A stretch of DNA of 64,000 bases from Candidatus Bathyarchaeia archaeon (GTDB lineage: Archaea > Thermoproteota > Bathyarchaeia > Bathyarchaeales > Bathycorpusculaceae). The stretch is taken from the NCBI GenBank assembly GCA_050010755.1, contig JBEKKK010000001.1:1-64000 (forward strand). The letters run 5' to 3'. Under the pieces are notes generated by a model, which saw only the letters and a list, made by a program, of their open reading frames with translations, did no database searches and was not told the origin of the DNA. The translations under genes were made by a program, and so were the position numbers. How positions within the stretch are numbered: the first letter of the stretch is position 1; each line of letters opens with the position of its first letter. Positions 151-61,334 of this stretch are shown in pieces.

Positions 151-315
151 ATCAACAAAACGAAAGTGACATACCCTTGCCTTGACAAGTGATGAACCGG
201 GCTGAGGTAAAATGTTGATAGAAGGTAGATGCAGACCTTGGAAAACTTGCCAGGGAGCGCGCGCTACAATGCCCATGGTCCCTTTAGTTCTTAGCTTCGT
301 GCGCACGCGACAAGG

Positions 316-1224
316 TTAACCCATCCAGCTTGGGTTTTGGGTGGTGCTGTCGAACGCAGTTCCTGTTTTGTAGGGTTCGTAGTTTCCCGTTCTGGCGGCT
401 TTCTCAGTCTTGGCTAAAAGTTTGGAACGTTCTGCATCCGTCATTGGAGAAAAATCCCTGACTGCTGATAATGCCTGTTCAAGAATCGACATGGAGTCGA
501 TGCCCGTGATTACGACGCTGACTGGTAAACTCATGGAATAGCGCAGACATTCTTGCGCGGTGACGAAGCCGCTGTCGAGTATGTTTCTATCTCCGAGGGG
601 TTTCATACCCAGCACGCCTATTCCGTGCTTCAAGAGAACTGGCAGGACTTTTCTCTCAAAGCTGTTGTAGTGGGCATCCATCACGTTGAGCGGCATCTGC
701 ACCGCATCGAAAGTGAAGCCTTGGTCGAACCCCATCCTCAGCATTCTCAGGTGAACATCGGGACTCTTGTGACCAGTGAAGCCTATGTAACGAATCTTCC
801 CCTCGGTCCTAGCGTCGAGAGCCGCCTCAAGCGCACCTCCAGACTCGAAAATCCGGTCAGCATCTGAGGATCGAATTATCTCATGGAATTGGAGCAAATC
901 AATATTCGTATCGAGACGGCTGATGGATTCATCAATCTGCTTCTCTGCCGTCTTTTTGTCGCGACCATCTATCTTTGTCATGAGAAAAACTTTTTCTCGG
1001 TATCCGCCCCGCAGGGCTTTGCCCATCCGCGTTTCGCTGAGACCATCGTTGTAATCCCAGCTGTTGTCCAGAAAATTAATGCCCTTATCAATGGCAGTTC
1101 TTACGATTTTCAGGCTTTCTTCGTCTGAAACTCGCTGCGAGCCAATGTGGTATCCGCCAACACCTACAATTGAAACCTTCTCCTTTGTCCGACCAAGAGT
1201 ACGATAAAGCATCTCTGCACTCAT
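316..1224 (-). CDS. Aldo/keto reductase
   Basis: YRTLGRT..VSIVGVGG, GINFLDNSWDY, FLMTK, DLLQFH and IRYIGFTGH AKR motifs. Confidence 0.93.
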   Translation of the reverse strand: MSAEMLYRTLGRTKEKVSIVGVGGYHIGSQRVSDEESLKIVRTAIDKGINFLDNSWDYNDGLSETRMGKALRGGYREKVFLMTKIDGRDKKTAEKQIDESISRLDTNIDLLQFHEIIRSSDADRIFESGGALEAALDARTEGKIRYIGFTGHKSPDVHLRMLRMGFDQGFTFDAVQMPLNVMDAHYNSFERKVLPVLLKHGIGVLGMKPLGDRNILDSGFVTAQECLRYSMSLPVSVVITGIDSMSILEQALSAVRDFSPMTDAERSKLLAKTEKAARTGNYEPYKTGTAFDSTTQNPSWMG

Positions 1225-1317
1225 AAAAAATTCACTCTAATCAAAGTGCGTCCGAACCGGTAATAGCTGTTTCCTCAATCAGATTCTTAAGAGTAGCCCG
1301 CGCTCTAAAGGGTCCTC

Positions 1318-1611
1318 TCATGGAGGCTTTTGGCTTTTCTTTTTGCGGGGCTTGTGCAGTACGAAGGTGTGGCCTCGAACGTCGATTACGGTGGATTCTG
1401 TTTGCTGTGCTGTTTTTGACGCGATGTCTTTGGCGCTCTCATTCATGAGCGCGCCTTGCAATATTTGGACTTTCACCATTTTCCTTTTTTCCAGCTGCCT
1501 AGAAATCTCATTCATCGCCTGCGGCGACGCTCCCTCCTTACCAACCCATATCGTCGGCTTCTCCAGGCTTAGCTCACGCTTCATCCGATTCCTCGCCTTA
1601 GACGAAATCAT
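1318..1611 (-). CDS. YhbY/CRM-domain RNA-binding protein
   Basis: KPTIWVGKEG, QLEKRKMVKV and VRGHTFVLHK motifs; start placed at MISSKAR (1611). Confidence 0.9.
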   Translation of the reverse strand: MISSKARNRMKRELSLEKPTIWVGKEGASPQAMNEISRQLEKRKMVKVQILQGALMNESAKDIASKTAQQTESTVIDVRGHTFVLHKPRKKKSQKPP

Positions 1612-1903
1612 GCTTCCATCCGATCCTTCAGTCCCGGTTAAACTATTTACATTCAAATAGTACAATGAAGCTCCTAAATATAGGCATCAGGCTTGTCCAA
1701 AATCTCATTCAGTTTTCTAGTCTCATGTCCTTCAAACGCGGGCGCTAAGTTGCTTCTTCATGCAAGCATGGCCATGGCGCACGCGAGAGAGAGTTTTTGG
1801 TACTGATTATTGAGACTGAAACGTTAAATTGCAGGGGTAACACAACTATTAACATGTATCTGTGGTTTCCCAAAGACCACATCCTGTGCACTAGTGGGAA
1901 AGC

Positions 1904-4228: not shown

Positions 4229-4234
4229 TCCCTT

Positions 4235-5665: not shown

Positions 5666-7082
5666 AAACCGTTGAATTCTACGGCAAAGTTGATTCTTCT
5701 GTCGCGTTAGCAAAAATCATATTCAATCATTTAACAAAGAGGTATCCAGCAAAAAAGATAGGAGATATTGCAGAAACAACTAGGGGGGTACGCCGTCCAG
5801 ATCCGTTAGTCAATATTACGGTGGAAACATTCCATGGATAAAATCAGGGGAATTGAACGATGGTTTGATTTCTGAGTATTCTGAAACGATAACTGAAGAA
5901 GGGTTAAGGAATTCAAGTGCAAAATTGTATCCTAAAGGAACGTTGGTATTAGCGCTTTATGGAGCGACTGTTGGGAAAGTTGGAATTGTTAATTTTGATA
6001 CGGTTTCAAATCAAGCTGTTTGTGCAGTCTTTCCAACTGAGGAAGTCGATAAGAGATACCTGTTTTGGTTTTTACGTCAAAAAAGACTAGACTTTTTACG
6101 AATGAGCTTTGGGGGAGCGCAACCGAATATTAGCCAAGCGGTTGTTAGAAATACGTCATTGCCTGTACCCCCTCTTGGGGTTCAGAAGCAAGTAGTAGCC
6201 ATATTAGATGAATATGAACTGAGCAAGAATCTGCTTGAAACAGAAGTTGTAACTGAAATTAGAGGCAATTTGCATACATATAACATCATAAAAACTGGGT
6301 ACGACAAAATTGTTGAAAATAACTCAACCAACTCAGAGCTCTGTCAAAAACTTCGCCAATCAATTCTCCTAGAAGCAGTCTCGGGAAAACTCGTTCCACA
6401 AGACCCAAAGGATGAGCCAGCGTCAGAACTTTTGAAGAAAATCAAAGTCGAGAAAGAAAAGCTGGTCAGAGAAAAGAAAATCAAGGAGATGGAACTGCAG
6501 CCAATTTCGAAGGAAGAAATTCCTTTGGAATTACCAAAAAGTTGGGAGTGGGTGAGGTTTGGGCAAATAACGATTTGCAGAGATGGAGAGCGAGTACCCG
6601 TATCCGAAGACGAAAGGAAACTAAAAGAAAAAATCTATGATTACTATGGTGCATCAGGGATAATTGATAAAATTGACAGCTATCTTTTTGACAAAGAACT
6701 GCTTTTGATTGGAGAAGACGGCGCCAATCTGGTAAATAGATCCACCCCAATAGCATTCTTGGCAAAAGGGAAATATTGGGTAAACAACCATGCGCATGTT
6801 TTGGACTCAATTGATTTAGATATACTCAGATTCCTAGAAGTCTACATAAACGCAATTGATTTAAGACCATATGTCACTGGCACTGCTCAACCCAAGATGA
6901 ACCAGTCTAAGATGAATTCCATTCTTGTTGCTTTTCCTCCATTAGCTGAACAGATGAGAATTATAAAAAAGGTTGAAGCAATAATGAACCTCTGCGATGA
7001 ATTAGAACAGAAAGTCAAAGAGAACCAAAAAAGCTCCGAATATCTATTGGAAGCAGTTTTGAAAGAGGCTCTCGCATCTTAA
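5662..7082 (+). pseudogene. hsdS: Type I specificity subunit with a 1-nt frameshift at a G6 run (5783-5788)
   Basis: The frame from CTG 5662 (overlapping the hsdM stop) reads ..YPAKKIGDIAETT; the next frame continues GGTPSRSVSQYYGGNIPWIKSGEL into ORF 5853-7082, which has two TRDs and conserved helices. Confidence 0.88.
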
Positions 7083-7413: not shown

Positions 7414-7611
7414 AAATTGTTAGTCAGTAAAAAAGCATTTCAAGTTCGCGCGCACTGCTGAATAAAGAACGTGAGTAAGCGCACATTGAATTGAATAGCA
7501 CATTGGGTTTAGGAACAGAAAGCAGATAGATCGAGCTTTATCCTGGATACATAATTGGTTTATACTGAGAATTTGTAGTAGATGAAGACATATGAGTGAA
7601 GGGGTTCCAAG

Positions 7612-7905
7612 ATGAGACGTTCTAAGCTTGAGATGTATGTTGACATTCTCAAAGTGTTAGCTCATCGCGGACCCTTGAAACCAACGCACATAATGTATAA
7701 AACAAACGTGGCTCTTAGCGTTCTAAGAGAATATCTGGACTTTCTAATCAAACAGAATCTTGTTGAAGAAAGAAATGTAGGGAAAACTAGAACAGTCTTT
7801 GCTATAACTCAAAGAGGCATAACGGTACTAGAGTACTTTAGGGAACTGCAACAAGCATTGCCAATCATTGAAGAAACAAGAAATATGGTTCCGACACCTA
7901 TTTGA
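7612..7905 (+). CDS. Winged-helix transcriptional regulator (archaeal HTH_45/COG3432-like)
   Basis: RRSKLEMYVDIL..LKPTHIMYKTN..YLDFL..FAITQRG. Confidence 0.88.
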   Translation: MRRSKLEMYVDILKVLAHRGPLKPTHIMYKTNVALSVLREYLDFLIKQNLVEERNVGKTRTVFAITQRGITVLEYFRELQQALPIIEETRNMVPTPI

Positions 7906-8300
7906 CTTCATTAGTGCACGCACTAGCCTTAGTAGCGCAGCGCGCGCTTTTTCTTGATTATTTGAGAAGAATGGAAGATAGAGAATTCCAAAATTCACCA
8001 GAATATCATTCATCACAATTAGGAAAACACAGATTTATGGAAAAAATGTTAAAGAATTTTGACCACGAAAAGAAATATACCATTGAATCCATGGAACGCA
8101 AGACTCTTCAACTTAATTAGAAATTCTAAAAAAACTTACGCGTGATCTCTTATTTTCCAAATCGACAATATGAGGTTAAATTGGAAAATGGAACATTAAA
8201 CTCATTAACGATATTGTAAATGCATTACAATTTAGAATCTCATGTTCAACAAACAGCGCGCATCAAATCTCCAATCTATTAAACCTTCTCTGGCACGAGT

Positions 8301-8866
8301 GCGCGCGCTTTGACTATGTGTGGTTTGTTCTGTGTTTTGTTGTGGTTTTGTTAGATGTGGGGGAAGAATGTTCCTGGGACTGCTACGTGGAAGAGGACTC
8401 CGAATATTATGCTCACTATGACGAAGATTATCCATGCCAGTATGGCTATTGCTAGGGCGGCGAGCCAGCCCGTTCTGAAGCTTGCCTTGTAGACCCATAG
8501 CCAGGCTATGAGAGCCAGAATCAGCGCGATTATGTATGCCGTTGAGCCGATTACAGCTCCCAGAAGGTAACCCACTATAAACAATGTGACAGCATAAACT
8601 ATTGGGCCGAACAGCGTGGCAAGCATAGCCTCGCCAAACGTGGCTCTTCCGCCCGTTACTGCTTTGCCGGCTAACCACACGGGTATCGAGACTATAATCC
8701 ACAGAACAATCAAGCCGATTATGGTAACAACCAGACTCGCTAAACTGATATTTCCAATAATCAGATTGCTCAAGCACCACACCATTCAAGCTACATAGAA
8801 GAACGAAGGAGTATTAAACTTGTGTAGCTGCAGCGCCGCAGCAACAGAGCAGCTGCTATGCGCGCG
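8301..8866. repeat. Copy 1 of a ~560-bp diverged direct repeat (gene, promoter and downstream tract)
   Basis: Aligns by eye with 12806-13367; both ends are GCGCGC tracts. Confidence 0.9.
8351..8785 (-). CDS. Small multi-TM membrane protein, copy 1
   Basis: About 4 hydrophobic segments; highly similar to 12852-13274. Confidence 0.85.
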   Translation of the reverse strand: MVWCLSNLIIGNISLASLVVTIIGLIVLWIIVSIPVWLAGKAVTGGRATFGEAMLATLFGPIVYAVTLFIVGYLLGAVIGSTAYIIALILALIAWLWVYKASFRTGWLAALAIAILAWIIFVIVSIIFGVLFHVAVPGTFFPHI

Positions 8867-9087: not shown

Positions 9088-9171
9088 CATGCGCGCCGAA
9101 ACCCGCTCAACAGTCTGATACGACCCTTAAATAACTTAAAAGACAAATGATAGTTTGATGGGCGGAGAGCA

Positions 9172-9753
9172 ATGACCGCAGATTATCTTTTCATAGTTAG
9201 ACACGGAGAAACCGAAGCCAACAAAAAAGGAATAGAAGCAGGGCTATTGGATTACCCCCTGACTAAAAAAGGAGTGAAAGAAGCCTCATTCATAGCCAAG
9301 ACTCTTTCGAAAGTGAAGATAAACGCCGTTTACAGCAGCCCCGTGTTCCGCGCCGTCGAGACTGCAAAAATTCTGGCGCGCCCTCACAAATTGAAGGTAA
9401 AAACCCTTGAGGAACTGACAGAAGCGAAGCTCAAACCCAGATTCGTCGGCAAAAAGGGAAGACATCACATATTGACCAACCCTGAAGCATACTCAGAGAC
9501 GGACAACGACCTCCTAGAGCGAACTGGGAAAGCCATCAAAATCATCAAACAGGAAGCAGAAGGGAACGTGATAGTAGTTTCCCATGGCGACGTGATAACT
9601 GCAATGCTTGAGGGTGTGGTCGAAAGAAGGGTTAGCACTGAGAACTACTACGTTCTCCATGCTGAACCTGCAGCCCTGAGCATTGTCGAAATCAAGAGCA
9701 GACCATTCCTGGTCTTGTACAATTATCACCGCAAGATGTTTGCGAATTTCTAA
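9172..9753 (+). CDS. Histidine phosphatase (phosphoglycerate mutase-like)
   Basis: RHGETE, YSSP..RAVETA and VVSHG motifs. Confidence 0.92.
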   Translation: MTADYLFIVRHGETEANKKGIEAGLLDYPLTKKGVKEASFIAKTLSKVKINAVYSSPVFRAVETAKILARPHKLKVKTLEELTEAKLKPRFVGKKGRHHILTNPEAYSETDNDLLERTGKAIKIIKQEAEGNVIVVSHGDVITAMLEGVVERRVSTENYYVLHAEPAALSIVEIKSRPFLVLYNYHRKMFANF

Positions 9754-9880
9754 TTCTAAAATCGAATATTCCAAAGCGCGCGCTCCGTGCAGGTGAACCA
9801 GCTATCAGCAAGAAAGAACACAATCGCGTCAGAAGCAAACTGTACGCGCGCGCACGCATATATCGACGGCTGTTCTTGGA

Positions 9881-10393
9881 TTAGAAAAACTTCTTGACGA
9901 CCCAATCTAGGTGATAGAGATAGTCTTCCTCTCTGGGAACGTATGTCGGACTTACGAGAGCCGCTCTTGCCGTTATATCGTCTTTTGAAATTTTGAATTC
10001 TCTGATGCAGGTTTCAATGTCTTGGATATCTCTTTGATTTAGTCTTCCAATTTTCGTTACAACTATGTCGACAGGATGCAGAGCCTTCAACAATATGTGG
10101 CTGTACTCTTTTATCTTGATGCTTTTGTCCAGATAGTCACCAGGCAAGGATTGACAGAAAACGTACCCGTCGGCCCATCGGTGTACTCTAAAGCCTGGCG
10201 GATTATTCTTGAGGGCTCGTTCAAATTCGGGCAAGTCACTGCTGGGAATCGTAAAATCAATATCAACTGTTGATGGTTTCAGATCAAGCAGAGTCATTGC
10301 TGTTCCGCCGACGGCTACAAGAGTAACTTTTCTTGTGAGATCACCATTGAAGACATCTAAGAATTCAAGTAACGCGCTCTTGTCACACGGCAT
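9881..10393 (-). CDS. DUF6036-like nucleotidyltransferase
   Basis: VGGTAM..STVDIDF NTase motif and K..R...RD..D C-terminal motif. Confidence 0.82.
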   Translation of the reverse strand: MPCDKSALLEFLDVFNGDLTRKVTLVAVGGTAMTLLDLKPSTVDIDFTIPSSDLPEFERALKNNPPGFRVHRWADGYVFCQSLPGDYLDKSIKIKEYSHILLKALHPVDIVVTKIGRLNQRDIQDIETCIREFKISKDDITARAALVSPTYVPREEDYLYHLDWVVKKFF

Positions 10394-12644: not shown

Positions 12645-12805
12645 TTTTCCCTCGCCATTCTGAACATCCGTACAGTTAGATCTAGAATTATCAGCCTGAT
12701 TCAGCCTATAACACCCTACTTCACCCTAATAGATGAGTGAAGATTTAAACGTTACCTTCAGCACATCTCTCTTTTCTCATGGCCCTAATGCTCAAGAGTA
12801 CAAAA

Positions 12806-13367
12806 GCGCGCGCTACATGCGCAGTCTGTTCAGTGTTTTGTTGTGGTTTTTCTAGATGTGGGGGAAGAATGTTCCGGGGACTGCTACGTGGAAGAGGGCT
12901 CCGAATATGATGCTTACTATGACGAAGATTATCCATGCCAGTATGGCTATTGCCAGGGCGCGGAGCCAGCCCGTTCCAAAGCTTGCCTTATAAATCCCTA
13001 TCCAAACTAGGAGGGCCAAAATCAGCGCGATTGTGTATGCCGTTGAGCCGATTAGCGCTCCCAGCAGGTAACCCACCGTGATCAATGTGACGGCGTAAAC
13101 TATTGGGCCGAACAGCGTGGCAAGCATAGCCTCGCCAAACGTGGCTAATCCGCCCGTTACTGTCTTGGCAGCTAACCATACGGGTATTGAGACTATTATC
13201 CACAGAACTAGCAAGCCGATTATGGTTACAAGCAGACTCGTTAAACTCATGTTTCCAATAATCAGATTGCTCAATCACTTCGCCTACTAAACTACATAGA
13301 AGTGCAAATAAGTATTAAACTTGCGAAACTGCAGCGTCACAACAACAAAGCAGCTGCCATGCGCGCA
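12806..13367. repeat. Copy 2 of the ~560-bp direct repeat
   Basis: Aligns with 8301-8866; begins and ends at GCGCGC tracts. Confidence 0.9.
12852..13274 (-). CDS. Small multi-TM membrane protein, copy 2
   Basis: Paralog of 8351-8785 with the same C-terminus, HVAVPGTFFPHI. Confidence 0.85.
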   Translation of the reverse strand: MSNLIIGNMSLTSLLVTIIGLLVLWIIVSIPVWLAAKTVTGGLATFGEAMLATLFGPIVYAVTLITVGYLLGALIGSTAYTIALILALLVWIGIYKASFGTGWLRALAIAILAWIIFVIVSIIFGALFHVAVPGTFFPHI

Positions 13368-16078: not shown

Positions 16079-16357
16079 TCTCCACCCTCCGTTTGTTCTC
16101 TATCACTGTGCGGATTAAAGATTTCTCTATGCCCGTCCACGCGCGCAACTGCATGTGTGTGCTAGAGATAACAGGTTCGAAGAAAGGACAGGAGAATGGG
16201 AAGAAAGGAATGAGCAAGGTAACTAGCTAGTTTGAGTTCGAGAAAAAACCTTACCGCATAAACACAGAGACGACAGAGCGCGCGATATATTGCTTTATTC
16301 GATATATTGCCTAGTTTGTAATATCTTTCAATAGTTTAGAGAAGCTAATGTTCTAAC

Positions 16358-16678
16358 ATGAAAGTGCGCCTATGGGTCATCACATTAGCAATCATTCTTG
16401 GCGCATTGAACGTATTAGATGTTCTCACAACTAAAGCTGCTCTGAGCATGGGCTGTGAAGAAGGTAACGGGTTGGCTATTGCCCTGTTCACGACATTCGG
16501 TTTCACTATTGGCATGTTCATTAAATTCGGCGCTGTCACCATTGTTGGCTGCTCGACCATTTACTCGTATCATTCTGACTGCAGAGCACTCCGCATTATT
16601 CTGACGACTTGTCTCGTCTACGCAGTTTGTCTATACACCGCAGTTGTGTGCAATAACATCATTAACATATTGCGATGA
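16358..16678 (+). CDS. DUF5658-like membrane protein
   Basis: LNVLDVLTT..G..EGN..K..VV.NN pattern with three TM segments. Confidence 0.75.
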   Translation: MKVRLWVITLAIILGALNVLDVLTTKAALSMGCEEGNGLAIALFTTFGFTIGMFIKFGAVTIVGCSTIYSYHSDCRALRIILTTCLVYAVCLYTAVVCNNIINILR

Positions 16679-16827: not shown

Positions 16828-17030
16828 TTCCAATCGCCCCATTATATTAAGACTTACGAAGCCATACTAATAAACCCTCGGTTTCCTGTCTCCTCGCCAA
16901 GTAGATTAGCCCGGCCCAATTTGTGAGGTTACATACGTTCTAGCGCGCGCTAAATAGCTTAGTCTTTAATACCTATTTCAAACAGCTTCCCCTCGCAGGT
17001 GAGAAGCATGCAAGATAAGGAGGGAACATC

Positions 17031-17789: not shown

Positions 17790-17910
17790 CACCAAACCGC
17801 GTGCATACTGCTCGCTGTACGGCGATTCTGTATTTTGCACAATTTTTAATACGCGCGCGCCAGCGGCATGCTTTATAGTGTAAGTCGACGATAGAGAGCA
17901 TCTGGTTTGA

Positions 17911-44745: not shown

Positions 44746-45465
44746 GTGAAAACATTGAATGAATCCGTCCTCCACCGAACCCTAGGCAGCCCATCCAGAG
44801 TGCAAATACTGCGGCTACTCTATCGAGGACCACTGAGCGTGGAAGAAATGGCAACGAAATTGGATCTGCAGCCTATAACTATAAGGCATCATTTGCAGTC
44901 CTTGATGGAAGCAGGGATAGTTGAATGCCACGAAGAGAGGTCAGGAACAGCAGGGCGGCCGAAAGCATACTACACCGTTGCCAAAACAGCTCCATCTACT
45001 AGTTTTCCCAAAAGACAATATCAGATTCTATCAGAATCTCTAATCAACAGCATGATAAAAGAATTTGGAATAAACAAGACGAAGGCGCTGCTCAAGAAAA
45101 TCGGCACAAACATGGGAGAATTCGCCGTAAAAACGCTTGAGTCCGAGCACAACATAAAATCTTGGTCCCCGAAGGATTACGAGACGTACATGATTCGTGG
45201 ATATTTTGAACAAGAGGGAGCGGAGCCTGAAATGCTTGAAGCGACTGGCAATAAAATTGTATACAGGCTTCACAACTGCCTTTTCCAAGAGCTGTCGGTG
45301 AAGATGCCCGAGATAATGTGTGATGTTCTTCATGAAAGCTTTCACGAGGGCGTTATCAAAGCAATTGGCAAGGACTTGAAAATAGACCGCGCTACTTGCA
45401 TGGGACACGGCGACCCTTATTGTGAACACGTTTGCGTGTGGCCACGCGCACCAAGAAAACCGTAG
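44746..45465 (+). CDS. ArsR-type HTH regulator with Cys-rich V4R/SufR-like (COG2345) sensor domain
   Basis: TIRHHL..L, GRP...Y and HNCLF..C..TC..GD..C. Confidence 0.85.
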   Translation: MKTLNESVLHRTLGSPSRVQILRLLYRGPLSVEEMATKLDLQPITIRHHLQSLMEAGIVECHEERSGTAGRPKAYYTVAKTAPSTSFPKRQYQILSESLINSMIKEFGINKTKALLKKIGTNMGEFAVKTLESEHNIKSWSPKDYETYMIRGYFEQEGAEPEMLEATGNKIVYRLHNCLFQELSVKMPEIMCDVLHESFHEGVIKAIGKDLKIDRATCMGHGDPYCEHVCVWPRAPRKP

Positions 45466-45771
45466 ATTGCAATAGCACTCAAATGGGAAAATCTGGAGAC
45501 AGCACGCGCGCTCGTTAGCTTAGGACGGAAAATGAACTACTTTCCCACGGTTTCAAGCATAATCTCGACGGTTTTCGCTCTTCCACTTTCATGGTGTATC
45601 GCAAAAGAACAAAGAGGCATCAGCCAATATCGGCAAGTTCCTTGTTCATGTTCTTCATTACAACTCTGACGCGCTGATGCCCTTGACTTGGGAGCAGAGG
45701 TTGAAGGCAGGGAATTTAGGTGAAAGTGAAGTAGCGCGCGGGCGCACTTGCTTGGAAGGTTCTGAATTCCG

Positions 45772-46296
45772 TCAGAATTCTGATAGGCGCTTCCAGTTGC
45801 TCCACTTTCGTATTATGAGCGCATCCACACTGTGGTTACCATATTTCGCGCTTCTCTCGGCTATTATCATCGCGGCGAAAACGAAAGCGTAAACTGCTGC
45901 AGTTCCAATATCCGTCGAGCCAGGTCCATAAGGCCCGCCAAATCCTTCAGGAACAGCCCATATCATCAGACTGTACAGTGCACCGACAATATACACTGTC
46001 TTTCTCAAGAAACCCACGATTAATACAAGCCCGAGCAGAATCTCGATCACCCCTATTGAATAGTAGACAGCGGTGGGTTGGGAAGTTACCGAGCTCAGCC
46101 AGAAACTGTACCAAGGATGAAGCCATGAAGGTGCGCCCTGCCCAGCTGTCTGAACCATGTTCACTATATCTGATGGTTGCAGGTAGGTGAATTTTATCAA
46201 CCCATCTATCAACCACACTATTCCGAAAGCAATTCTAAATGCAGTAAACGCATTCAATGATTCTGTTAGCGCACGCACGCGCTTGCGTATTTTCAT
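45772..46296 (-). CDS. DoxX/DoxD (TQO small subunit-like) membrane protein
   Basis: RI.FG..WL..G..K, E..LGL.LI.G and W.VPEGFGGPY.PGSTD.G. Confidence 0.78.
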   Translation of the reverse strand: MKIRKRVRALTESLNAFTAFRIAFGIVWLIDGLIKFTYLQPSDIVNMVQTAGQGAPSWLHPWYSFWLSSVTSQPTAVYYSIGVIEILLGLVLIVGFLRKTVYIVGALYSLMIWAVPEGFGGPYGPGSTDIGTAAVYAFVFAAMIIAERSAKYGNHSVDALIIRKWSNWKRLSEF

Positions 46297-52934: not shown

Positions 52935-55451
52935 TCATTCCTCCTCAACTGAAGCTACAACCAGTGGAGTAACATGTGTCTTGCTAGGAACTTGCGCGGT
53001 GGAGGTCTGTTGCACGATTGGCTCTGCCTTTTTCTTCAACAAATTCTCCAATATTGGACGCAGTTTCTGATTCTCTGCTTTGATTCTCTCCTTGCCTAAG
53101 GCGACCATCTGCCCGGTGGTTTGTTTGACGATCTCAGCAAACTTGACGCCCTCGGCAGCGGAAACATACTCTACGCGAAGTCTCTCTGAGCTTAACCCGA
53201 GCTTCTCAAGCATCTTCCCCAAGGCGTCCATTCTGGATTTCATCCTTCCGTTTCCGCTTATGTAGTGGCAATCGTAGGGTAGATGGCATGCTCCAACCAT
53301 GACCATGCCAGCGCCAAGCCTGAAAGCTTCAAGGACGAAGTCTCGATCAACTCTTCCCGAACACATCACACGAACAGGTCTTATCGTTGGTGGATACTCG
53401 ATTCTGCTCGTCCCTGCAAGGTCTGCTCCTGCATAACTGCACCAGTTACACAAGAACGCCAGAATCTTGTCTTCCGGATTTGTCTCCAGAGCTGCTCTGA
53501 TCTGGGCCAGTATCTGATCGTCCGTAAAGTGAAGTTGAGTCATTGCATTTGCGGGACATTCCGCAACGCACGTCCCGCACCCATGGCACGTGGCAGGTAT
53601 TACTTGAGCTGGTTGCTTTTCCTCGATTTTTATTGATCTGTGGGGGCATCTTTCTGCACAAATGCCACACTTAGCTGAAACATTTCTGCACTTGAGTGGG
53701 TCTACCACAGAAACTATAGGTTCGATCTTCCAAGTAGTCTTAGAGATTACAGTTGCAGCCCTTGAGGCTGCCCCACTGCCTTGCGAAACGCTGTACGGGA
53801 TGTCCTTTAATCCCTGACACGCACCCGCAAAGAATATCCCATCGGTGGGCGCATCCATTGGTTTGAGCTTGGGGTGGCTCTCCATGAAAAAGCCATCTGT
53901 TCCCCGGGTTAGACCTAGTATCCGCGCAATTTCCTCGGTACCTTTCTTGGGTATGGCGGCTGTTGCGAGAACAACCATCTCGGACTCAACCTCTATGGGT
54001 TGCCCCAGCATCATGTCCTCAGAGTGTAAAATCAAGTTGCGAGTCTCAGGGACTTCAGTAATTCGGCTTACGCGTCCGCGAACAAAGGTTACGCCAAGCT
54101 CTCTTGCGCGCTGATAGAATTCTTCAAAACCCTTGAAATTGCTCCGCATATCCATGTAGAAAATGTAGACTTCAACATCTTCCTTATACTTCTCTTTGAG
54201 CTGAATCGCGTGTTTCAAAGTGTACATGCAACAGAAGTTTGAACAATATGGATATTTCTTTACGTCACGCGAACCGACGCACTGAATGAACGACATGGTG
54301 TGGGGTTTCTTTCCATCGGAAGCCCTGATAACCTTTCCTCCTGTCGGACCCGCCGCGAGTATGAGTCTCTCAAACTCCATAGACGTGAGCACGTTTGCAT
54401 ATTTACCGTAGCCCAAAAGCGGATTATCAAACGGGAGGTATAAGTCATAACCAGTCGCTACAATTATCGCACCGACTTCGATCTCGACTTCTTCTGGTTT
54501 CTGCTCGAAATTTATGGCCTGTCTTGCTCCACAAGCATCAACGCACTTGTAGCATTCGATGCAGTAATCCCTGTTTATGGTGTAGGTCAGTGGAACCGCT
54601 TGGTCGAAAGGAACGGATATTGCCTTTCTAACGCCTAAGTTCTGGTCCCATTCATTCGGATATTCGATTGGACAAACTTCCTTGCACTCGCCACATCCAG
54701 TACAGTTGTGAGCGATCACGTAGCGCGGGTTTTTCCGAATTTTGACTTTAAAATTACCTACGAACCCGTCTACGCTCAGCAAGTCCGCATAGTCTATTAT
54801 TTCAATATTAGGATGCCTTTTCACATCAACCATCTTCGGGCCTTCAATGCATATGCTGCAATCGAGAGTCGGAAAGGTTTTGTCTAGCTGCGCCATGTGT
54901 CCTCCTATGCTTTCACCTTTCTCGAGCAGGTACACCTTGAAGCCCATTTCGGCCAAGTCAAGCGAGGCATTCATTCCAGCTATGCCGCCCCCTATAATCA
55001 ACGCTTTGTTCGTTACCGGGACCTCTATCTTCTGAAGAGGCGCTAACAGTCTCACCTTCGCGACGGCCATTTTTATCAAATCTTTGGCTTTATCCGTCGC
55101 AGCTTCGGGAGTGCTGGGGTGACACCACGATGCAAATTCACGGATATTTGCCATTTCAAAGAGAAACGGGTTCAAGCCGACCTCTGAAACCGTTCTCCGA
55201 AACGTAGCCTCGTGCATGCGAGGCGAGCACGCTGCCACGACAACACGATTGAGCCTATGTGCTTTAACGGCCTTTTTGATTTCTTCCTGTCCAGGATCGG
55301 CGCACGTGTACCGGTTATCTTTCACATAGACAACGTCTGGCAGAGTTCCCGCAAACTCAAGAAGTTTTTGAATGTTCAGCACTCCGGCTATGTTTAGACC
55401 GCAGTGACAAACGAAAACCCCTACCCTCGGCTTTTCAACTTCCTTTTCCAT
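52935..55451 (-). CDS. hdrA: HdrA-MvhD fusion with intact MvhD domain
   Basis: GVFVCHCG, KTFPTLDC, CNWCSY, MCSGRV and GACH...CHY; start placed at MEKEVEK (55451). Confidence 0.95.
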   Translation of the reverse strand: MEKEVEKPRVGVFVCHCGLNIAGVLNIQKLLEFAGTLPDVVYVKDNRYTCADPGQEEIKKAVKAHRLNRVVVAACSPRMHEATFRRTVSEVGLNPFLFEMANIREFASWCHPSTPEAATDKAKDLIKMAVAKVRLLAPLQKIEVPVTNKALIIGGGIAGMNASLDLAEMGFKVYLLEKGESIGGHMAQLDKTFPTLDCSICIEGPKMVDVKRHPNIEIIDYADLLSVDGFVGNFKVKIRKNPRYVIAHNCTGCGECKEVCPIEYPNEWDQNLGVRKAISVPFDQAVPLTYTINRDYCIECYKCVDACGARQAINFEQKPEEVEIEVGAIIVATGYDLYLPFDNPLLGYGKYANVLTSMEFERLILAAGPTGGKVIRASDGKKPHTMSFIQCVGSRDVKKYPYCSNFCCMYTLKHAIQLKEKYKEDVEVYIFYMDMRSNFKGFEEFYQRARELGVTFVRGRVSRITEVPETRNLILHSEDMMLGQPIEVESEMVVLATAAIPKKGTEEIARILGLTRGTDGFFMESHPKLKPMDAPTDGIFFAGACQGLKDIPYSVSQGSGAASRAATVISKTTWKIEPIVSVVDPLKCRNVSAKCGICAERCPHRSIKIEEKQPAQVIPATCHGCGTCVAECPANAMTQLHFTDDQILAQIRAALETNPEDKILAFLCNWCSYAGADLAGTSRIEYPPTIRPVRVMCSGRVDRDFVLEAFRLGAGMVMVGACHLPYDCHYISGNGRMKSRMDALGKMLEKLGLSSERLRVEYVSAAEGVKFAEIVKQTTGQMVALGKERIKAENQKLRPILENLLKKKAEPIVQQTSTAQVPSKTHVTPLVVASVEEE

Positions 55452-55856
55452 GGTCTGGATACGAATCGCCCCCCACGTTATGATTATAATAATTATCATA
55501 AAAAGTATATTAATCTTCCTGACAGGCAACCGCATTTCACACCTTAACCTCGAATGGTTCTTTGGAGCCTCTTGGTGACAGAAGAAAAACTCTCTTGAAC
55601 GGAAATCTTATATTGATTTGTATCATATCAATAATATTAAGGTGCGTCATGCTGAGAACTTTCGCCTCCTTTACTTTGCAAACACAATTTTTTGACATGC
55701 ATGACGCATCTCAACAATTCCAAACGAGCCCATACGCACTTTCCGAATTTCCCGCGCGCGTTATCGTTAGCGGTTATGCGGTTTTTTTGTGGTTGAGAAC
55801 AGAGCGTTCTACCCCGTTTCTCAAGTTCCAAGAGATTATTTGGATGACCAAAGGGC

Positions 55857-57041
55857 ATGACGGCTGTTGAGGGGCAAAAGGAGATTTCTCGTTACCGCTG
55901 GCTAGTGCTGTTTGCGTCCCTGTTAGCTTTCATGATGTATGGTTTTGCTCTTCAGTCAGTGCCTCCTTTGCTGCAGCAGTTCAAAATCATCTTCGGCGTA
56001 AACGACGCGACGGCAGGGCTCCTCATGTCCATAGTCGTTATTCCAGGAATTGTTCTGGCGTTACCAGCCGGCGTATTAATTGATAGGCATGGTTTCCACA
56101 AAATCGGGTTCCTGTCCGTTTTGACAATTGCAGCCGGCAGCCTATTGATGGCAATCTCTCAGAGCTTCTTTTGGGCACTCTTTGCCAGATTCATTGTGGG
56201 CTTCGGCGGCGGTTTGATCTCCGTTGGCACGCCATCGATTGTTCCCCAATGGTTCGAACGCAGAGAGATGGGAAAAGCCATGGGAGTTTACGCGGTGGGC
56301 ATGCCCGCAGCCACGACGGCGGCGTTCTTTGCAGCGCCCGTCTTGGCGCAGAGTTTTGGTTGGCAGTCGCCGTTTTACACTACAGTTGTTATTTCGTTGA
56401 TTTCGGCGGCGTTTTTCTGGGCAACTGTGAGAGACGGTCCGTTGAAGAGTCAGGCAACCGTTGCCAAGTTGTCTGAGGCTGGGCAGGTTTTCCGTATCGG
56501 CGAGGTTTGGAAGGTGAGTCTTGTTTGGATGTTTTTCAACATGGTTGCCATCGGCTTCCTCACATGGGCGCCCGAATTGTTCGTCACGTTTAGAGGGTTG
56601 ATGCCCTTGTCGGCCAGCATTCTCGCGAGTTTAATCATGATTGCAAACTTCTTTTTCGTTCCCTTTTACGGGTGGGCTTCCGACAGAGTGGGCAGACGCA
56701 AACCCTTCATAATCGCAGGACCCGTCGCTATGGCGTTGAGCCTTTACGCCATCTCCTATGCAACGGGCATTTTCCTGCCAGTTTCCATCTTTATTCTTGG
56801 AGCTTCAGCAGGGGCGGTCCCGCCGATTGTGATGGCGATTACGGGGCAGACTTTGCCTCCGAAATTGGCGGGCATGGGTTTTGGCGTCGTTACGTTCTCG
56901 CAGAACATCGGCATCACGCTGACTGCTCCTATAATTGGGTACTTCATACAGGTTACGGGTTCTTTGCCTCTGACTTTTTTAGGCATGTCCGTTTTCGCCT
57001 TTTGCGGGGCTGCAGTAGCCTTAACGGCTCGGACAAGATAG
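55857..57041 (+). CDS. MFS transporter
   Basis: About 12 TM segments with G.L.DRHG and GW.SDRVGRR motifs. Confidence 0.92.
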   Translation: MTAVEGQKEISRYRWLVLFASLLAFMMYGFALQSVPPLLQQFKIIFGVNDATAGLLMSIVVIPGIVLALPAGVLIDRHGFHKIGFLSVLTIAAGSLLMAISQSFFWALFARFIVGFGGGLISVGTPSIVPQWFERREMGKAMGVYAVGMPAATTAAFFAAPVLAQSFGWQSPFYTTVVISLISAAFFWATVRDGPLKSQATVAKLSEAGQVFRIGEVWKVSLVWMFFNMVAIGFLTWAPELFVTFRGLMPLSASILASLIMIANFFFVPFYGWASDRVGRRKPFIIAGPVAMALSLYAISYATGIFLPVSIFILGASAGAVPPIVMAITGQTLPPKLAGMGFGVVTFSQNIGITLTAPIIGYFIQVTGSLPLTFLGMSVFAFCGAAVALTARTR

Positions 57042-57176
57042 CGTAACCTCTTCCCCAGAAATGATACGTTTGATCTTGATAATCAAGGCGTGGTTGATTC
57101 CAGCGTAGTTCTCTTCCTAGCGCGCGCCATGATCTTTCAAGAACCCAGCTTCGAAAGGATTCTTCCAATCTGGTCA

Positions 57177-60561: not shown

Positions 60562-60564
60562 GGA

Positions 60565-61143
60565 CTATTTTCCTCCCGCGCCCGCTTTCAAGCTAGGCCT
60601 AACCTTTTCGGCTCCGCGTCCTCTTGTTCTCAGAGCCCTGACCTTCTTGCCTGCACTGGTTAGGCTTCTGAACGCTCTTCTGCGGTGTTGCTTCTGGCCT
60701 ATCCACCTGATGTTCTTATCGGCCTTTATCGCCGGATGATGCGCGTCGACCATTATCACTTCAAACCATTTTGAAACGCCGTCTTCTCCAACCCAGTAAG
60801 AGTTCAGGACTTCAAGGTTGGGAAACTTTCTTGCGACTCTTTCTTCGGCGATCAGCCTCAGGCTTTTTGAAGGCTTGAACTTTTTGACCCCCATCCGTTT
60901 CGGCCTTCTGCCCGCCTTAGGCCTCTGCTTTCGCATTCCCCCTCTTCTTATGCGAACGCGCGCCAAAACGAAGCCTTGCTTCGCCTTGTATCCCAGCTTT
61001 CTAGCCTTATCTAAGCGCGTCGGTTTCTCCACTCGGGTTATAACCGACTGCCCGCGCCATTCAATCAATCTCTGATGCATTAACTCGTCGACATAGGATT
61101 TCTCATGTTGAGCCCATGCCTCTGCAATGTATTTGTACGTCAA
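60565..61143 (-). CDS. rpl15e: 50S ribosomal protein L15e
   Basis: [27 protein letters not shown] and LTSAG; TTG start after AGGTG RBS. Confidence 0.96.
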
Positions 61144-61168
61144 TCGTTTCCACCTTAACATTAGTTTA

Positions 61169-61212
61169 CGGTTCAGCCTTTACGGCCACATCCCTGCGGA
61201 CTTCAATCCGCC
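61169..61212 (-). promoter_or_regulatory. Structured 5' leader of rpl15e (eL15 r-leader-like)
   Basis: GCGGA-TTGAAG-TCCGC hairpin followed by GG-GATGT-GGCC-GTAA-AGGC-TGAA-CC internal-loop stem. Confidence 0.6.
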
Positions 61213-61334
61213 AGTAGCTTGAGTCATAGCATCAAGCACCAAAATAAACCTTTCCAGAGCGCACGGGAATTGACTGCTTCACATTGAGAGGTAAGCTGGT
61301 AGTGCGCGCACAGAGCTCTGGGAGCAGGAAATGA

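Follow-up and report, generated by a model that had tools for sequence, protein, structure and literature searches.

The window, that is, the whole 64-kb stretch of DNA analysed here, derives from a peat archaeon of the Bathyarchaeia, which are abundant uncultured archaea of sediment and peat without genetics. Its genes include those for a wHTH protein, a histidine phosphatase, an ABC transporter, an intron-bearing tRNA, an HdrA-MvhD fusion, an MFS protein and a geranylgeranyl reductase, and short alternating GC tracts recur among them. The tracts are listed below; none is assigned a strand, and (-) marks a gene on the reverse strand.

256..265: perfect AGCGCGCGCT, between ORF 19..150 and the stop of gene 316..1224(-)
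1449..1454: GCGCGC, in weak ORF 1318..1665
7131, 15585, 22176, 23828, 28458, 45502: GCGCAC/GCACGC variants
7447..7453: CGCGCGC, intergenic, 5' of the wHTH gene 7612..7905
7939..7948: perfect AGCGCGCGCT, then TTTTTCTT, 34 nt past the stop of 7612..7905
8256..8261: GCGCGC, intergenic
8300..8309: TGCGCGCGCT, 1 mismatch, ~40 nt past the stop of 8351..8785(-)
8860..8866: GCGCGCG, divergent gap, adjoining TTTTATAAA
9036..9042: GCGCGCG, within a dubious 51-aa ORF
9091..9096: GCGCGC, ~80 nt 5' of gene 9172..9753
9376..9381: GCGCGC, within CDS 9172..9753 (histidine phosphatase)
9775..9784: perfect AGCGCGCGCT, convergent gap, 22 nt past the stop of 9172..9753
9845..9853: CGCGCGCGC, extending as ACGCATATAT, ~28 nt past the stop of 9881..10393(-)
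12805..12814: perfect AGCGCGCGCT, ~40 nt past the stop of 12852..13274(-)
13361..13366: GCGCGC, divergent gap
16140..16146: CGCGCGC, intergenic
16277..16286: AGCGCGCGAT, 1 mismatch, ~75 nt 5' of 16358..16678
16941..16952: perfect 12-mer TAGCGCGCGCTA, between 16358..16678 and 17031..17789
17852..17860: CGCGCGCGC, ~60 nt past the stop of 17031..17789
18373..18382: AGCGCGCTCT, 1 mismatch, intergenic
19042..19048: GCGCGCG, final 41 nt of weak ORF 18475..19083
21136..21142: GCGCGCG, within CDS 20827..21267
22181..22186: CGCGCG (TAGCGCACGCGCG), 11 nt past the stop of 21349..22170
22396..22402: GCGCGCG, ~90 nt 5' of 22490..22984
23876..23881: GCGCGC, divergent gap
24408..24413: GCGCGC, 48 nt past the stop of 23944..24360
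25270..25279: perfect AGCGCGCGCT, convergent gap, 25032..25265 / 25283..27166(-)
27356..27365: TGCGCGCGCT, 1 mismatch, divergent gap
34931..34937: GCGCGCG, 43 nt past the stop of the ABC transporter gene 33182..34888
38254..38260: GCGCGCG, final 43 nt of 37872..38297
38580..38586: CGCGCGC, intergenic, beside the intron-bearing tRNA (38682-38786)
45446, 46269: further coding copies, from the list in the initial annotation
45505..45511: CGCGCGC, 40 nt past the stop of 44746..45465
45734..45740: GCGCGCG, ~35 nt past the stop of 45772..46296(-)
54106..54111: GCGCGC, within the HdrA-MvhD fusion gene 52935..55535(-)
55753..55760: CGCGCGCG, divergent gap
57119..57128: AGCGCGCGCC, 1 mismatch, ~78 nt past the stop of the MFS gene 55857..57041
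60957..60963: CGCGCGC, within ORF 60565..61161(-)
61304..61309: GTGCGCGCAC variant, 25 nt past the stop of the geranylgeranyl reductase gene 61335..62696(-)

Every coordinate given in the initial annotation was found to bear the tract or variant described there. Among the 37 window tracts of at least 6 nt, 29 are intergenic (13,459 bp in total) and eight coding (50,541 bp), according to crude gene calls made for this analysis, with which "intergenic" takes in unannotated small genes. The annotation had placed the tracts in most intergenic gaps; they are present as described, and "most" was an overstatement, with 22 of 49 window gaps of at least 40 bp containing one (15 of 25 within 7,000-28,500). 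Genome-wide, tracts occur in 86 of 257 convergent, 194 of 788 tandem and 82 of 358 divergent gaps. Operons in the window, such as 9881-12644 and 46546-55535, carry tracts at their ends and none internally. It was also noted that the tract at 8860..8866 sits in a segment common to the upstream region of the paralogue at 13349.

The over-representation was confirmed to be real and far above chance. As had been proposed, the iterated tracts exceed a dinucleotide-matched null: GCGCGC occurs 47 times in the window against 11.20±3.34 in 100 dinucleotide-preserving shuffles, with 0/100 shuffles reaching 47, and window sequences with at most one mismatch to AGCGCGCGCT number 13 against 1.55±1.39, including 6 perfect copies. 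The genome-wide count places the excess in intergenic DNA (GCGCGC, 640 vs ~75 expected under a first-order or 147 under a second-order model; GCGCGCGC, 208 vs 4-12), and coding GCGCGC stands at expectation (271 vs 271). When coding interiors were compared with synonymous-codon shuffles, GCGCGC was found 175 times against 174.3 and GCGCGCGC 18 times against 11.2, that is, 1.0x for the 6-mer and 1.6x for the 8-mer (z 2.1), compared to 17-48x in intergenic DNA. AGCGCGCGCT, with 57 copies against 0.35 expected, resembles HIP-type words in being brief, rich in GC, perfectly palindromic and in excess by at least one order of magnitude. An assembly artefact was excluded: contigs from independent runs of metagenome sequencing (X5 records 14 and 15; X7 records 17 and 20-24) read through the sites with 0 differences, and none of the motifs coincides with a junction.

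The repeated unit proved to be (T)A-GCGCGCGC-T(A), a perfect palindrome whose phase, length, and flanks are all specific. Among maximal tracts, GCGCGCGC (n = 116) outnumbers the opposite phase CGCGCGCG (n = 20) 5.8-fold, and A..T flanks enclose 58 of these 116 tracts, compared to only 77 of 740 GCGC seeds. Tract-length counts plateau at 6-8 (120, 116) and fall to 17 at 10, the sole longer tract being an 11-mer. Fully alternating 10-mers are scarce (TGCGCGCGCA, 2; ACGCGCGCGT, 4; vs 57 for AGCGCGCGCT); other comparison words gave counts of 25 (AGCGCGCT) and 3 (AGCGCGCGCGCT), and AGCGCT occurs 77 times against 105 expected. One-mismatch variants of the word are all enriched, by 2-10x, with transitions among the commonest. 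A position weight matrix returned a defined word with two flanking positions on each side and was flat outside ±2. The left and right flank preferences are mutually independent, and complementary longer arms around the word (k=1-12) occur at expectation, leaving no hairpin arms. A symmetric reader of duplex DNA fits the independent flank preferences and the lack of complementary arms, while the specificity of phase, length, and flanks, together with the absence of extended flanks or hairpin arms, argues against Z-DNA, slippage, MITEs, and REPs.

Plotting distances to start and stop codons revealed an excess 0-40 nt past stops (1.2-1.75x within-gap random placement) and a deficit over the last 60 nt ahead of start codons, the zone in which TATA-like hexamers are most frequent. 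The first decile of tandem gaps holds 53 tracts against 23.6 expected, and positions 65-200 nt upstream of starts carry tracts as often as those past stops. Density is highest in convergent gaps (1.77/kb), followed by tandem (1.13-1.23/kb) and divergent gaps (1.05/kb); arithmetic from these densities and the start depletion indicated that exclusion from the 60-nt promoter zone alone approximately predicts this ranking. Up to ~500 bp, tracts per gap approximate a Poisson expectation with gap length. Of the confident 3' flanks (<=150 nt; n = 1023), 202 hold a tract, or ~20%. Runs of T5 peak 10-20 nt past stops, overlapping the tract zone, and the two coincide in 56 flanks against 62 expected (n = 1023), showing them to be independent. 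No Rfam matches were found at word sites.

The word resides in unconstrained non-coding DNA. In aligned intergenic columns of G000 and the congener G004, identity is 0.703 in tracts vs 0.731 in flanks. Of the 24 instances that make up this test, mostly 6-7-mers from one genome pair, 3 are intact. Gaps of 1-3 nt fall inside the tract in 5 of the 24. The differences at sites are mostly substitutions, not 8-12-bp insertions. Tract density is 12-fold lower in conserved than in non-conserved intergenic DNA (0.10/kb vs 1.20/kb), and 51 of the 76 G004 tracts in the syntenic span fall in alignment gaps. One ~460-bp insertion in G004 is bracketed by GCGCGC and GCGCGCGC, with a single copy in G000. The proposal of a recombination core was not supported, with no consistent motif found at the junctions of ~24 indels relative to G004. 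Among orthologues whose gaps are no shorter than the span under test, the presence of a downstream tract is correlated between the two genomes at 100 nt ([[65,5],[10,5]], OR 6.5, p 0.013) and 150 nt (OR 19.5, p 1.5e-4), and upstream presence is not significantly so (150 nt, OR 1.9). This downstream correlation may reflect a common lack of constraint.

Surveying relatives, as had been suggested, showed the word to be present in 5/5 genus genomes (29-115 copies vs 2-6 for a control word) and patchy across Bathyarchaeia families. Class-wide, 24 of 251 genomes carry at least 10 copies with at most 5 of the control, concentrated in families f26 (9/13) and f31 (6/10) and in four further f1 genera. 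The enrichment is likewise confined to intergenic DNA in G004 (160 copies vs 12.1, with the same A..T flanks) and in G121, from another family (68 vs 8.5, with A..T flanks in 6/6). The word is absent from the sister genera of similar GC represented by G006 (47% GC) and G012. A second "dialect", TCGCGCGCGA, reaches 13-26 copies in some f24 genera, a count made without base-composition correction in genomes that are presumably GC-richer. It was noted that intergenic (TG)n is also strongly enriched in G121 (TGTGTGTGTG, 34 vs 0.1 expected).

A survey for co-distributed DNA-binding proteins or recombinases had been suggested; none of the candidates tested tracks the word. C5 methyltransferase (PF00145) exceeded the cut-off in 0/5 genus genomes and Vsr was found in 0/31 genomes, while N4/N6 methyltransferases (PF01555) occur in 28/31 relatives regardless of the motif. 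The bacterial markers DprA and ComEC were each found in 0/5 motif-rich genomes. The Zα domain was detected in 0/5 genus genomes, a weak test given that the control was also silent (0/14 genomes). NucS is near-universal (215/251 genomes), and its loss therefore fails to explain the patchiness. Y1 transposase occurs in 3/5 genus genomes vs 1/26 other relatives and in 31/251 genomes class-wide, including many motif-poor carriers, and in 0/10 genomes of f31, six of which are motif-rich. IS110 transposase showed no pattern with the word, the IS200-like element ends in CCCCGGRGCTTGCYCCGGGG hairpins, not (GC)4, with no consistent tract in its flanks, and the word is not among the members of self-BLAST repeat families. 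No co-distribution was found for the local wHTH gene. Winged-helix regulators less typically recognise contiguous 10-bp palindromes than do restriction/modification enzymes or ribbon-helix-helix proteins.

The initial annotation had proposed a cis-element, and a site for a protein is still the best reading of a two-fold symmetric word so specific in phase, length, and flanks; the strict per-gene boundary role is doubtful because only ~20% of 3' flanks carry a tract, base-level conservation is lacking, and density follows unconstrained DNA. We tentatively favour, at somewhat less than an even chance, the word as the recognition site of a putative two-fold-symmetric (dimeric) DNA-binding protein or enzyme, kept collectively with fast site turnover. 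The reader factor would be present in this genus and in patchy other Bathyarchaeia lineages, holding the site population above chance as a whole while single sites remain interchangeable. Sites would arise and decay quickly, mostly via CpG transitions, and persist only where the DNA is otherwise unconstrained: just past stops, in convergent gaps, 5' of core promoters though not inside them, and within insertions specific to a lineage. The word would then work on the scale of the chromosome or of a transcription-unit neighbourhood, the scale suggested for cyanobacterial HIP1. It would not serve as an operator of single genes, a terminator hairpin, or a Z-DNA switch. The excess of the word, its specificity, its location, the want of conservation at single sites, and the patchy distribution among lineages are observed; we infer that a protein reads the word, that its sites are maintained collectively, and what its binding might achieve. 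A more novel but unlikely reading casts it as an archaeal HIP1/DUS counterpart, a "self" palindrome read by a transferable factor. Its dialect would be A(GC)4T here and in families f26 and f31, with certain f24 genera using T(CG)4A. Such a word might organise the chromosome at transcription-unit boundaries or tag DNA exchanged among related Bathyarchaeia, which would explain both the patchy distribution and the highest density in lineage-specific, recently gained non-coding DNA.

Two other readings are unlikely. A boundary element, whether roadblock terminator or insulator, would act locally at each site, a bound protein past genes blocking read-through polymerase from either side and shielding the next promoter. 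The excess past stops, most evident in the first decile of tandem gaps, its overlap with the oligo-T peak, the depletion where TATA-like hexamers peak, the dense convergent gaps, the downstream orthologue correlation, and the operons bearing tracts at their ends all agree with this. However, most 3' flanks have no tract and those with one are independent of T5 runs, divergent gaps retain 1.05/kb in a ranking that promoter-zone exclusion alone roughly reproduces, sites lack base-level conservation, conserved intergenic DNA is depleted, and the orthologue correlation may stem from shared lack of constraint. Functionless molecular drive, which we would likewise call possible without expecting it, invokes a lineage-specific enzyme that keeps converting near-cognate sequences into the word, with neutral decay and purging where harmful; the enzyme might act through methyltransferase-linked mismatch repair (Elhai's HIP model), a nuclease plus repair, or biased uptake/recombination (DUS/USS). 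Individually important sites should be conserved and are not, so the data fit such drive equally well. It accords with site decay at about the neutral rate, accumulation in unconstrained, lineage-specific DNA, the enrichment of all one-mismatch neighbours, and a patchy distribution with a second dialect, as is usual for mobile enzymes of short specificity. Cyanobacterial HIP variants track cognate methyltransferases (PMC4390886) and HIP1 correlates with transformation genes (PMC13756078). Substitution drive should nevertheless hit synonymous sites, where coding interiors stand near expectation, and neither the C5 methyltransferase, Vsr, DprA, and ComEC counts above nor the motif-independent PF01555 enzymes point to such an enzyme.

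The remaining readings are improbable to differing degrees. It is quite improbable that (GC)n serves as Z-DNA or a supercoil sink, or is a dinucleotide microsatellite tolerated outside frames. Slippage in 2-nt steps breaks the frame and would explain absence from CDS, including synonymous sites, and the tract-internal gaps in the alignment, the (TG)n of G121, and the alternating core are in keeping. The supercoil sink of the initial annotation was nonetheless not supported, as the preferred flanks break purine/pyrimidine alternation, the opposite phase is far rarer, and tracts stop at 10-11 nt; the length plateau and drop, the flank contrast between GCGC seeds and 8-mers, and the scarcity of alternating 10-mers also count against structure or slippage, Zα gives only its weak negative, and NucS loss does not account for the patchiness. 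Eight bp is short for Z-DNA. A trace of mobile DNA, be it a Y1 (RAYT)-moved REP-like element, a transposon footprint or target duplication, or a cassette crossover core, is very improbable. Its extragenic, lineage-specific, hundreds-fold iteration, the tracts in G004 alignment gaps, the bracketed insertion, and Y1 in the genus suit it; against it stand the lack of conserved flanks, terminal repeats, or stem arms, the patternless IS110, and indel junctions without the motif amid differences that are mostly substitutions. Flat flanks, the distinct IS200-like ends, and a Y1 transposase not tracking the word largely refute it, and a MITE or IS remnant was rejected on the flat matrix beyond ±2 and the self-BLAST families that exclude the word. 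We give barely any credence to an RNA-level 3'-UTR element for mRNA stability or processing, despite the enrichment just past stop codons: a loop-less 10-nt palindrome without complementary flanks cannot form a useful hairpin, the word is equally frequent 65-200 nt upstream of starts, where transcription along with a gene is not expected, perfect DNA dyad symmetry is unneeded for an RNA signal, and Rfam matches are absent from the sites.

Full-text literature searches returned no report of an archaeal highly iterated short palindrome or of this word, which appears to be unreported, HIP1-like but intergenic-only. It offers a direct handle on a sequence-specific DNA protein or a repair/exchange process in Bathyarchaeia, whose factor should be findable through phylogenetic profiling owing to the patchy distribution. 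Confinement to non-coding DNA makes it a cleaner case than HIP1 for parting "function" from "drive". In practice, its compositional signal could help to bin these lineages and to flag their non-coding or recently acquired DNA.

Among known highly iterated short palindromes is the HIP1 of cyanobacteria, with other forms in bacteria (REP, DUS/USS). HIP1 (GCGATCGC) is described as abundant and conserved within and between cyanobacterial ORFs (PMC5861425), and HIPs as accompanied by cognate methyltransferases (PMC4390886). The word resembles HIP1 and alternate HIPs (PMC5861425, PMC4390886, PMC13756078) in being a GC-rich, perfectly palindromic short sequence built on an 8-bp core, lineage-restricted, with variant dialects, tens- to hundreds-fold excess, and an unsettled function, perhaps in the nucleoid or DNA exchange. 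It differs in its expected frequency in CDS, its unconserved sites, the lack of C5 methyltransferase and Vsr in the genomes searched, and its archaeal host. REP/BIME elements are extragenic, often 3' of transcription units, in hundreds of copies of species-specific sequence, and REPs are imperfect ~20-40-nt palindromes that fold into stem-loops and are found flanking a Y1 transposase gene. The word shares the extragenic location, frequent 3'-end position, hundreds of copies, and species-specific sequence; unlike REPs, it spans 10-12 bp with no loop or arms, and Y1 neither flanks nor co-distributes with it. The DUS of Neisseria and USS of Pasteurellaceae are non-palindromic dialect words of 9-12 nt. 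Their copies, hundreds to thousands in number, often lie near the 3' ends of genes, are common inside genes, and are enriched in exchanged DNA. The word is likewise a lineage-specific 9-12-nt word in hundreds of copies, but is confined to non-coding DNA in genomes where DprA and ComEC were not found (0/5 motif-rich). Its 8-bp core alternates purine and pyrimidine as Z-DNA (CG)n does, although its phase, length, and flank preferences oppose Z-DNA formation. Noc/SlmA/MatP sites and Reb1/TTF-I roadblock terminators, the latter lying past genes, are short defined or palindromic scattered sites with one reader protein each; unlike the word, they are far fewer or not excluded from genes. Finally, the word shares with archaeal oligo-T terminators the zone past stop codons, but it is independent of T runs and occurs upstream of promoters as well.

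We found that the palindromic word AGCGCGCGCT (8-nt core GCGCGCGC) and alternating G/C tracts of at least 6 nt were over-represented in the non-coding DNA of the source genome, a Candidatus Bathyarchaeia assembly of 2.19 Mb on 8 contigs (47.7% G+C; completeness 93.5% and contamination 4.4%, as given), whose contig C1 opens with the 64-kb window. Every position for which the initial annotation had reported a tract indeed carried one. Within the window, GCGCGC occurred 47 times compared to 11.2±3.3 in dinucleotide-preserving shuffles (0 of 100 shuffles reached 47), and AGCGCGCGCT with at most one mismatch occurred 13 times compared to 1.55 in shuffles. Genes were called with a home-made codon-log-odds ORF picker (82% coding), and 29 of the 37 window tracts fell in 13.5 kb of intergenic DNA, whereas the 50.5 kb of coding DNA contained the other 8. 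Genome-wide, the intergenic class (403 kb, which under these home-made calls includes unannotated small genes and pseudogenes) contained 640 GCGCGC per strand where approximately 75 (first-order Markov) or 147 (second-order) were expected, and 208 copies of GCGCGCGC where 4-12 were expected. A frequency no higher than a dinucleotide-matched null had been named beforehand as the refuting outcome; intergenic GCGCGC surpassed that null 8-fold. The other refuting outcome named, an assembly artefact, was not borne out either: contigs of independent metagenome runs spanned the sites without differences or junctions. The claim that tracts occupy most gaps was an overstatement: a tract was present in 22 of 49 gaps of at least 40 bp in the window, in 15 of 25 between 7 and 28.5 kb, and in 23-33% across the genome.

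The density of GCGCGC was 1.59/kb in intergenic DNA versus 0.152/kb in coding DNA across the genome. In the coding fraction (1.78 Mb), 271 copies were observed and 271 expected. When the interiors of confident genes were compared with synonymous-codon shuffles, GCGCGC was found 175 times (174.3 expected) and GCGCGCGC 18 times (11.2 expected; z 2.1), and the word is thus neither avoided nor really enriched in coding sequence. Copies of the motif stood to synonymous-correctable neighbours as 18:70 in coding sequence and 208:559 in intergenic DNA, ratios that are not interpretable without a matched null.

We then characterized the anatomy of the word. Among maximal intergenic runs, GCGCGCGC was found 116 times, 58 of these with A..T flanks, and the other phase CGCGCGCG 20 times. 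The 10-mer AGCGCGCGCT was present in 57 copies against 0.35 expected (8 in coding sequence), and the 12-mer TAGCGCGCGCTA in 9 against 0.01; the fully alternating 10-mers TGCGCGCGCA and ACGCGCGCGT were rare by comparison (2 and 4 copies). A shorter variant, AGCGCGCT, was enriched (25 versus 6.0 expected), a longer one, AGCGCGCGCGCT, was found in 3 copies, and AGCGCT showed no enrichment (77 versus 105 expected). Tracts of 6, 8 and 10 nt numbered 120, 116 and 17, a non-geometric decay, and the sole longer tract was an 11-mer. Every one-mismatch variant of the core exceeded expectation, by 2-10-fold, and transitions ranked among the most frequent. Information in the position weight matrix was limited to positions ±1 (A 0.62 / T 0.58) and ±2 (T 0.47 / A 0.47), the matrix being flat farther out, and complementarity of bases at -k and +k (k = 1-12) was not above expectation. 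Because of this specificity of length, phase and flanks and the flat matrix without flank complementarity, the word was rejected as a hairpin apex, a MITE or a REP-type stem-loop. A longer repeat was likewise rejected, since an 18-nt extension at 8848 and 13349 is limited to two paralogous genes and one weak third site. A dyad of this kind, perfect, without a loop and specific in its flanks, would suit recognition of duplex DNA by a factor with two-fold symmetry.

The placement of tracts relative to genes was assessed against random placement in the same gaps. Tracts were enriched 1.2-1.75-fold at 0-40 nt past stop codons and depleted in most bins of the 60 nt ahead of start codons (0.26-0.67-fold). 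In tandem gaps, the decile adjoining the upstream stop contained 53 tracts compared to 23.6 expected. The tract minimum, at -60 to -35 of starts, coincided with the peak of TATA-like hexamers, and T5 runs peaked 10-20 nt past stops. A tract was present in 202 of 1023 3' flanks, and tract and T5 occurred together in 56, compared to 62 expected under independence. Density was 1.77/kb in convergent, 1.13-1.23/kb in tandem and 1.05/kb in divergent gaps, which is roughly the order that our own arithmetic predicts from removing about 60 nt per promoter. As density was alike across gaps of 50-800 bp (1.15-1.90/kb), the share of tract-bearing gaps climbs with length, and up to about 500 bp this rise is close to that of a Poisson process. 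Neighbouring tracts showed a mild excess of pairs closer than 100 nt (7.6% versus 3.7%) and no clear period in their spacing.

To follow single sites through evolution, 756 kb of the congener G004 was aligned to the whole source genome (138 best HSPs, 406 kb covered); site conservation was measured outside the window, because the window's own 7-27 kb stretch is poorly conserved with congeners. Enrichment in G004 was likewise intergenic-only, with 160 copies where 12.1 were expected (64 kb of intergenic sequence). Only 24 tract instances, counting both directions, fell in the intergenic part of the alignment (34.5 kb, 77% identity). For this one species pair, per-base identity was 0.703 in tracts and 0.731 in their flanks, and 3 of the 24 were intact in both genomes. 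Most differences amounted to one or two substitutions, with CpG transitions frequent among them; gaps of 1-3 nt occurred in 5 of the 24, and none contained an 8-12-bp insertion. Tracts of G004 containing GCGCGCGC were found at 1.20/kb in intergenic DNA not aligning to the source genome versus 0.10/kb where it aligned (0.07 and 0.01/kb in coding sequence), and across a 134-kb syntenic span 51 of 76 G004 tracts lay in alignment gaps, that is, in lineage-specific segments. From the poor conservation of sites, their density in non-aligned DNA and the enriched one-mismatch variants, the word population therefore turns over quickly and sits in unconstrained DNA. The junctions of about 24 indels between the two genomes shared no consistent motif, and an insertion-junction model was rejected on this account; one insertion of about 460 bp was flanked by two word copies where the source genome has one.

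The presence of a tract after orthologous stops was correlated between the two genomes, both within 100 nt (OR 6.5, p 0.013) and within 150 nt (OR 19.5, p 1.5e-4; both gaps at least as long as the span), and no significant correlation was found in the 150 nt upstream (OR 1.9). In several correlated pairs the tract stood at different positions, in different flanks. The downstream correlation argues against pure neutrality, although the numbers are small and a shared lack of constraint could equally yield it.

We assessed the phyletic distribution of the word, with related genomes entering the counts as non-independent samples. The source genome contained 69 copies of AGCGCGCGCT and the four other genus genomes 29, 87, 98 and 115, with 2-6 of the reversed control word; counts were 0-9 in 14 other genera of the family and 0-1 in 12 genomes from the order's other families. 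No such word was among the top intergenic k-mers of the sister-genus genomes G006 (47.1% G+C) and G012 (41.2%), both of which have less intergenic DNA, and as G006 is of similar G+C content, base composition is not the cause. In an even sample of the class, 24 of 251 genomes had at least 10 copies with at most 5 of the control. These comprised five from the source family f1 (the source genome, G099, G207, G234 and G210), 9 of 13 in family f26, 6 of 10 in f31, and one each in f27, f29, f36 and f37. Families f24 and f35, with 90 genomes between them, had low counts. Three f24 genera (g62, g84, g110) contained 13-26 copies of the control palindrome TCGCGCGCGA and 1-9 of AGCGCGCGCT, counts not normalised to base composition, which may represent a second 'dialect' or a mere effect of higher G+C. 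In 300 kb of the f26 genome G121, intergenic GCGCGC was found 68 times versus 8.5, tracts were at 0.82/kb in intergenic versus 0.10/kb in coding DNA and commoner near stops than near starts, and all six exact 8-mers had A..T flanks. That lineages so distant and scattered share one specificity points to a trans-acting factor common to them, which would have been transferred or repeatedly lost.

The same G121 stretch (C4:1-300000; L149-L163) was also strongly enriched in intergenic (TG)n/(CA)n, with TGTGTGTGTG present 34 times versus 0.1 expected (1 in coding sequence), a feature not seen in the source genome. Among viral contigs, 25 stretches carried a word pair 10-40 nt apart, 22 of them that pair only, and these gave no evidence of viral spread. 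One 47.9-kb viral contig (L191, L179) contained 109 GCGCGC in 12.6 kb where shuffles gave 18.9±4.7, a density far above that of the archaeal genomes, and the copies did not appear to be limited to gaps.

Candidates for the cognate factor were then examined. No C5 cytosine methyltransferase scored over the cut-off in the five genus genomes, and Vsr was found in 0 of 31 genomes; an N4/N6 methyltransferase (PF01555) was present but in 28 of the 31 relatives, NucS was near-universal in the class (215 of 251), and IS110 showed no pattern. DprA and ComEC were each found in 0 of 5 motif-rich genomes, and Zα in 0 of 5 genus genomes by a search whose control gave no match in any reference genome. The Y1 (IS200/RAYT) transposase occurred in 3 of 5 genus genomes versus 1 of 26 others, often at contig ends, but was rejected: the element terminates in CCCCGGRGCTTGCYCCGGGG hairpins, beside which (GC)4 was not consistently present, and it occurs in 31 of 251 genomes class-wide and 0 of 10 in f31. 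A multi-copy wHTH (HTH_45) gene, window 7612..7905, has the word on its flanks in the window and in two congeners. It too was rejected, as the HTH_45 family is found throughout the order, close homologues occur in families f1, f2, f6 and f7 with 0 of 13 in f26 and 0 of 10 in f31, and a tract lies within 200 nt of only 2-3 of the 8 HTH_45 genes listed for the source genome.

As an observation on the transposase itself, an IS200-like element was encountered at L141:2800-3335 (G004, contig C21), in L142 (G001, C9) and in L140 (end of G004 C3). It is multi-copy and encodes a Y1 transposase (about 140 aa) that is enclosed by hairpins, CCCCGGGGCTTGCCCCGGG and CCCCGGAGCTTGCTCCGGGG. Its many copies at contig ends in genus genomes probably break assemblies; it was not found in the source genome or in G003.

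We filed the word with the known highly iterated palindromic words, as a variant. In our full-text search of openly accessible articles, no report turned up of this word or of an iterated palindrome in any archaeon, and the passages checked in one hit, PMC13340088, contained nothing relevant. Our tentative reading, held at somewhat below even confidence, is that a putative dimeric, sequence-specific DNA protein, carried by the word-bearing lineages, recognises the word. The site population would be kept up collectively and individual sites would be interchangeable, so that they would survive only in sequence under no other constraint. Recognition of this kind would explain the specificity, dyad symmetry, promoter exclusion, turnover and patchy phylogeny, as well as the restriction to non-coding DNA without a synonymous-site effect. 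It matches the nucleoid-level function that Xu et al. propose for HIP1 (PMC5861425), although HIP1 sites are conserved and abundant inside genes, unlike the Bathyarchaeia word.

A local roadblock or insulator at gene 3' ends would account for the stop-proximal excess of tracts and for the downstream correlation between orthologues, but the low share of 3' flanks covered and the lack of site conservation make it unlikely. We regard as similarly improbable a functionless process, either the enzyme-driven drive proposed for HIPs by Elhai (PMC4390886) or a DUS-like uptake bias (compare PMC13756078): synonymous sites are nearly without signal and the enzymes looked for were not found to track the word, even though neutral decay of sites and the patchy distribution are what such a process would leave. 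Z-DNA formation or slippage fits poorly and is very unlikely; the preferred A..T flanks end the purine/pyrimidine alternation, opposite to selection for Z-DNA. Traces of mobile elements fit poorly as well and are less probable still, and a signal acting in RNA, another poor fit, is the least credible.

Several features of the window were observed beside the word:

1904-7082: Type I restriction-modification operon encoding HsdR (774 aa) and HsdM (476 aa), with ORF 5853..7082 the likely specificity subunit
8351-8866 and 12852-13366, minus strand: two paralogous genes (144 and 140 aa), no family assigned
10210-11551: one gene with 90% DNA identity to congener G002 (C11) and 73% to G004 (C3)
11551-24484: strain-variable island of 12.9 kb
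38682-38786 and 41283-41377: two tRNA genes with introns according to Rfam, of which ARAGORN recovers one, giving it an odd anticodon loop
61165-61211: eL15 ribosomal-protein leader, upstream of ORF 60565..61161 (minus strand)

The window is archaeal by its intron-bearing tRNAs, archaeal eL15 leader and HdrA-MvhD fusions, and the stretch was present in runs labelled peat or wetland metagenome. A metagenome contig of run X9 lacks the island, joining 11550 directly to 24485, and the island's flanks adjoin each other in G002. It contains small genes (GNAT acetyltransferases, a hydrolase, a wHTH and hypotheticals) and is especially palindrome-rich. The two paralogues have in common a conserved upstream segment, CAACARAGCAGCTGCYATGCGCGC, ending in a tract. 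Metagenome depth over 8335-9001 was several-fold above that of the bins around it; together with contigs that 'go back' in this stretch, this suggests a unit present in multiple copies. The nearest records to the geranylgeranyl reductase were Candidatus Bathyarchaeia/Bathyarchaeota MAGs (64-92% amino-acid identity); its region matched G004 at 86% identity, and no counterpart was found in G002. Such mosaic relationships to the two congeners suggest gene flow within the genus.

The remaining top intergenic k-mers (GTAATG, CAACATTA, AAAAAGGG) come from a family of repeats, each about 90 bp long (…ACATTACAAAGCAACATTACA…GTAAAGAAAAAAAGGGGAGGGGG), of which the source genome has 12 or more copies, among them the following outside the window:

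C1:472963-473068: repeat copy
C1:1134883-1134966: repeat copy
C1:1376555-1376650: repeat copy
C2:8578-8675: repeat copy
C3:126031-126125: repeat copy

This repeat may be a promoter or leader module, a small RNA, or, on the opposite strand, a terminator made up of C-rich and oligo-T sequence. Segments rich in ACATTACA and similar to the repeat were found in an insertion of G004.
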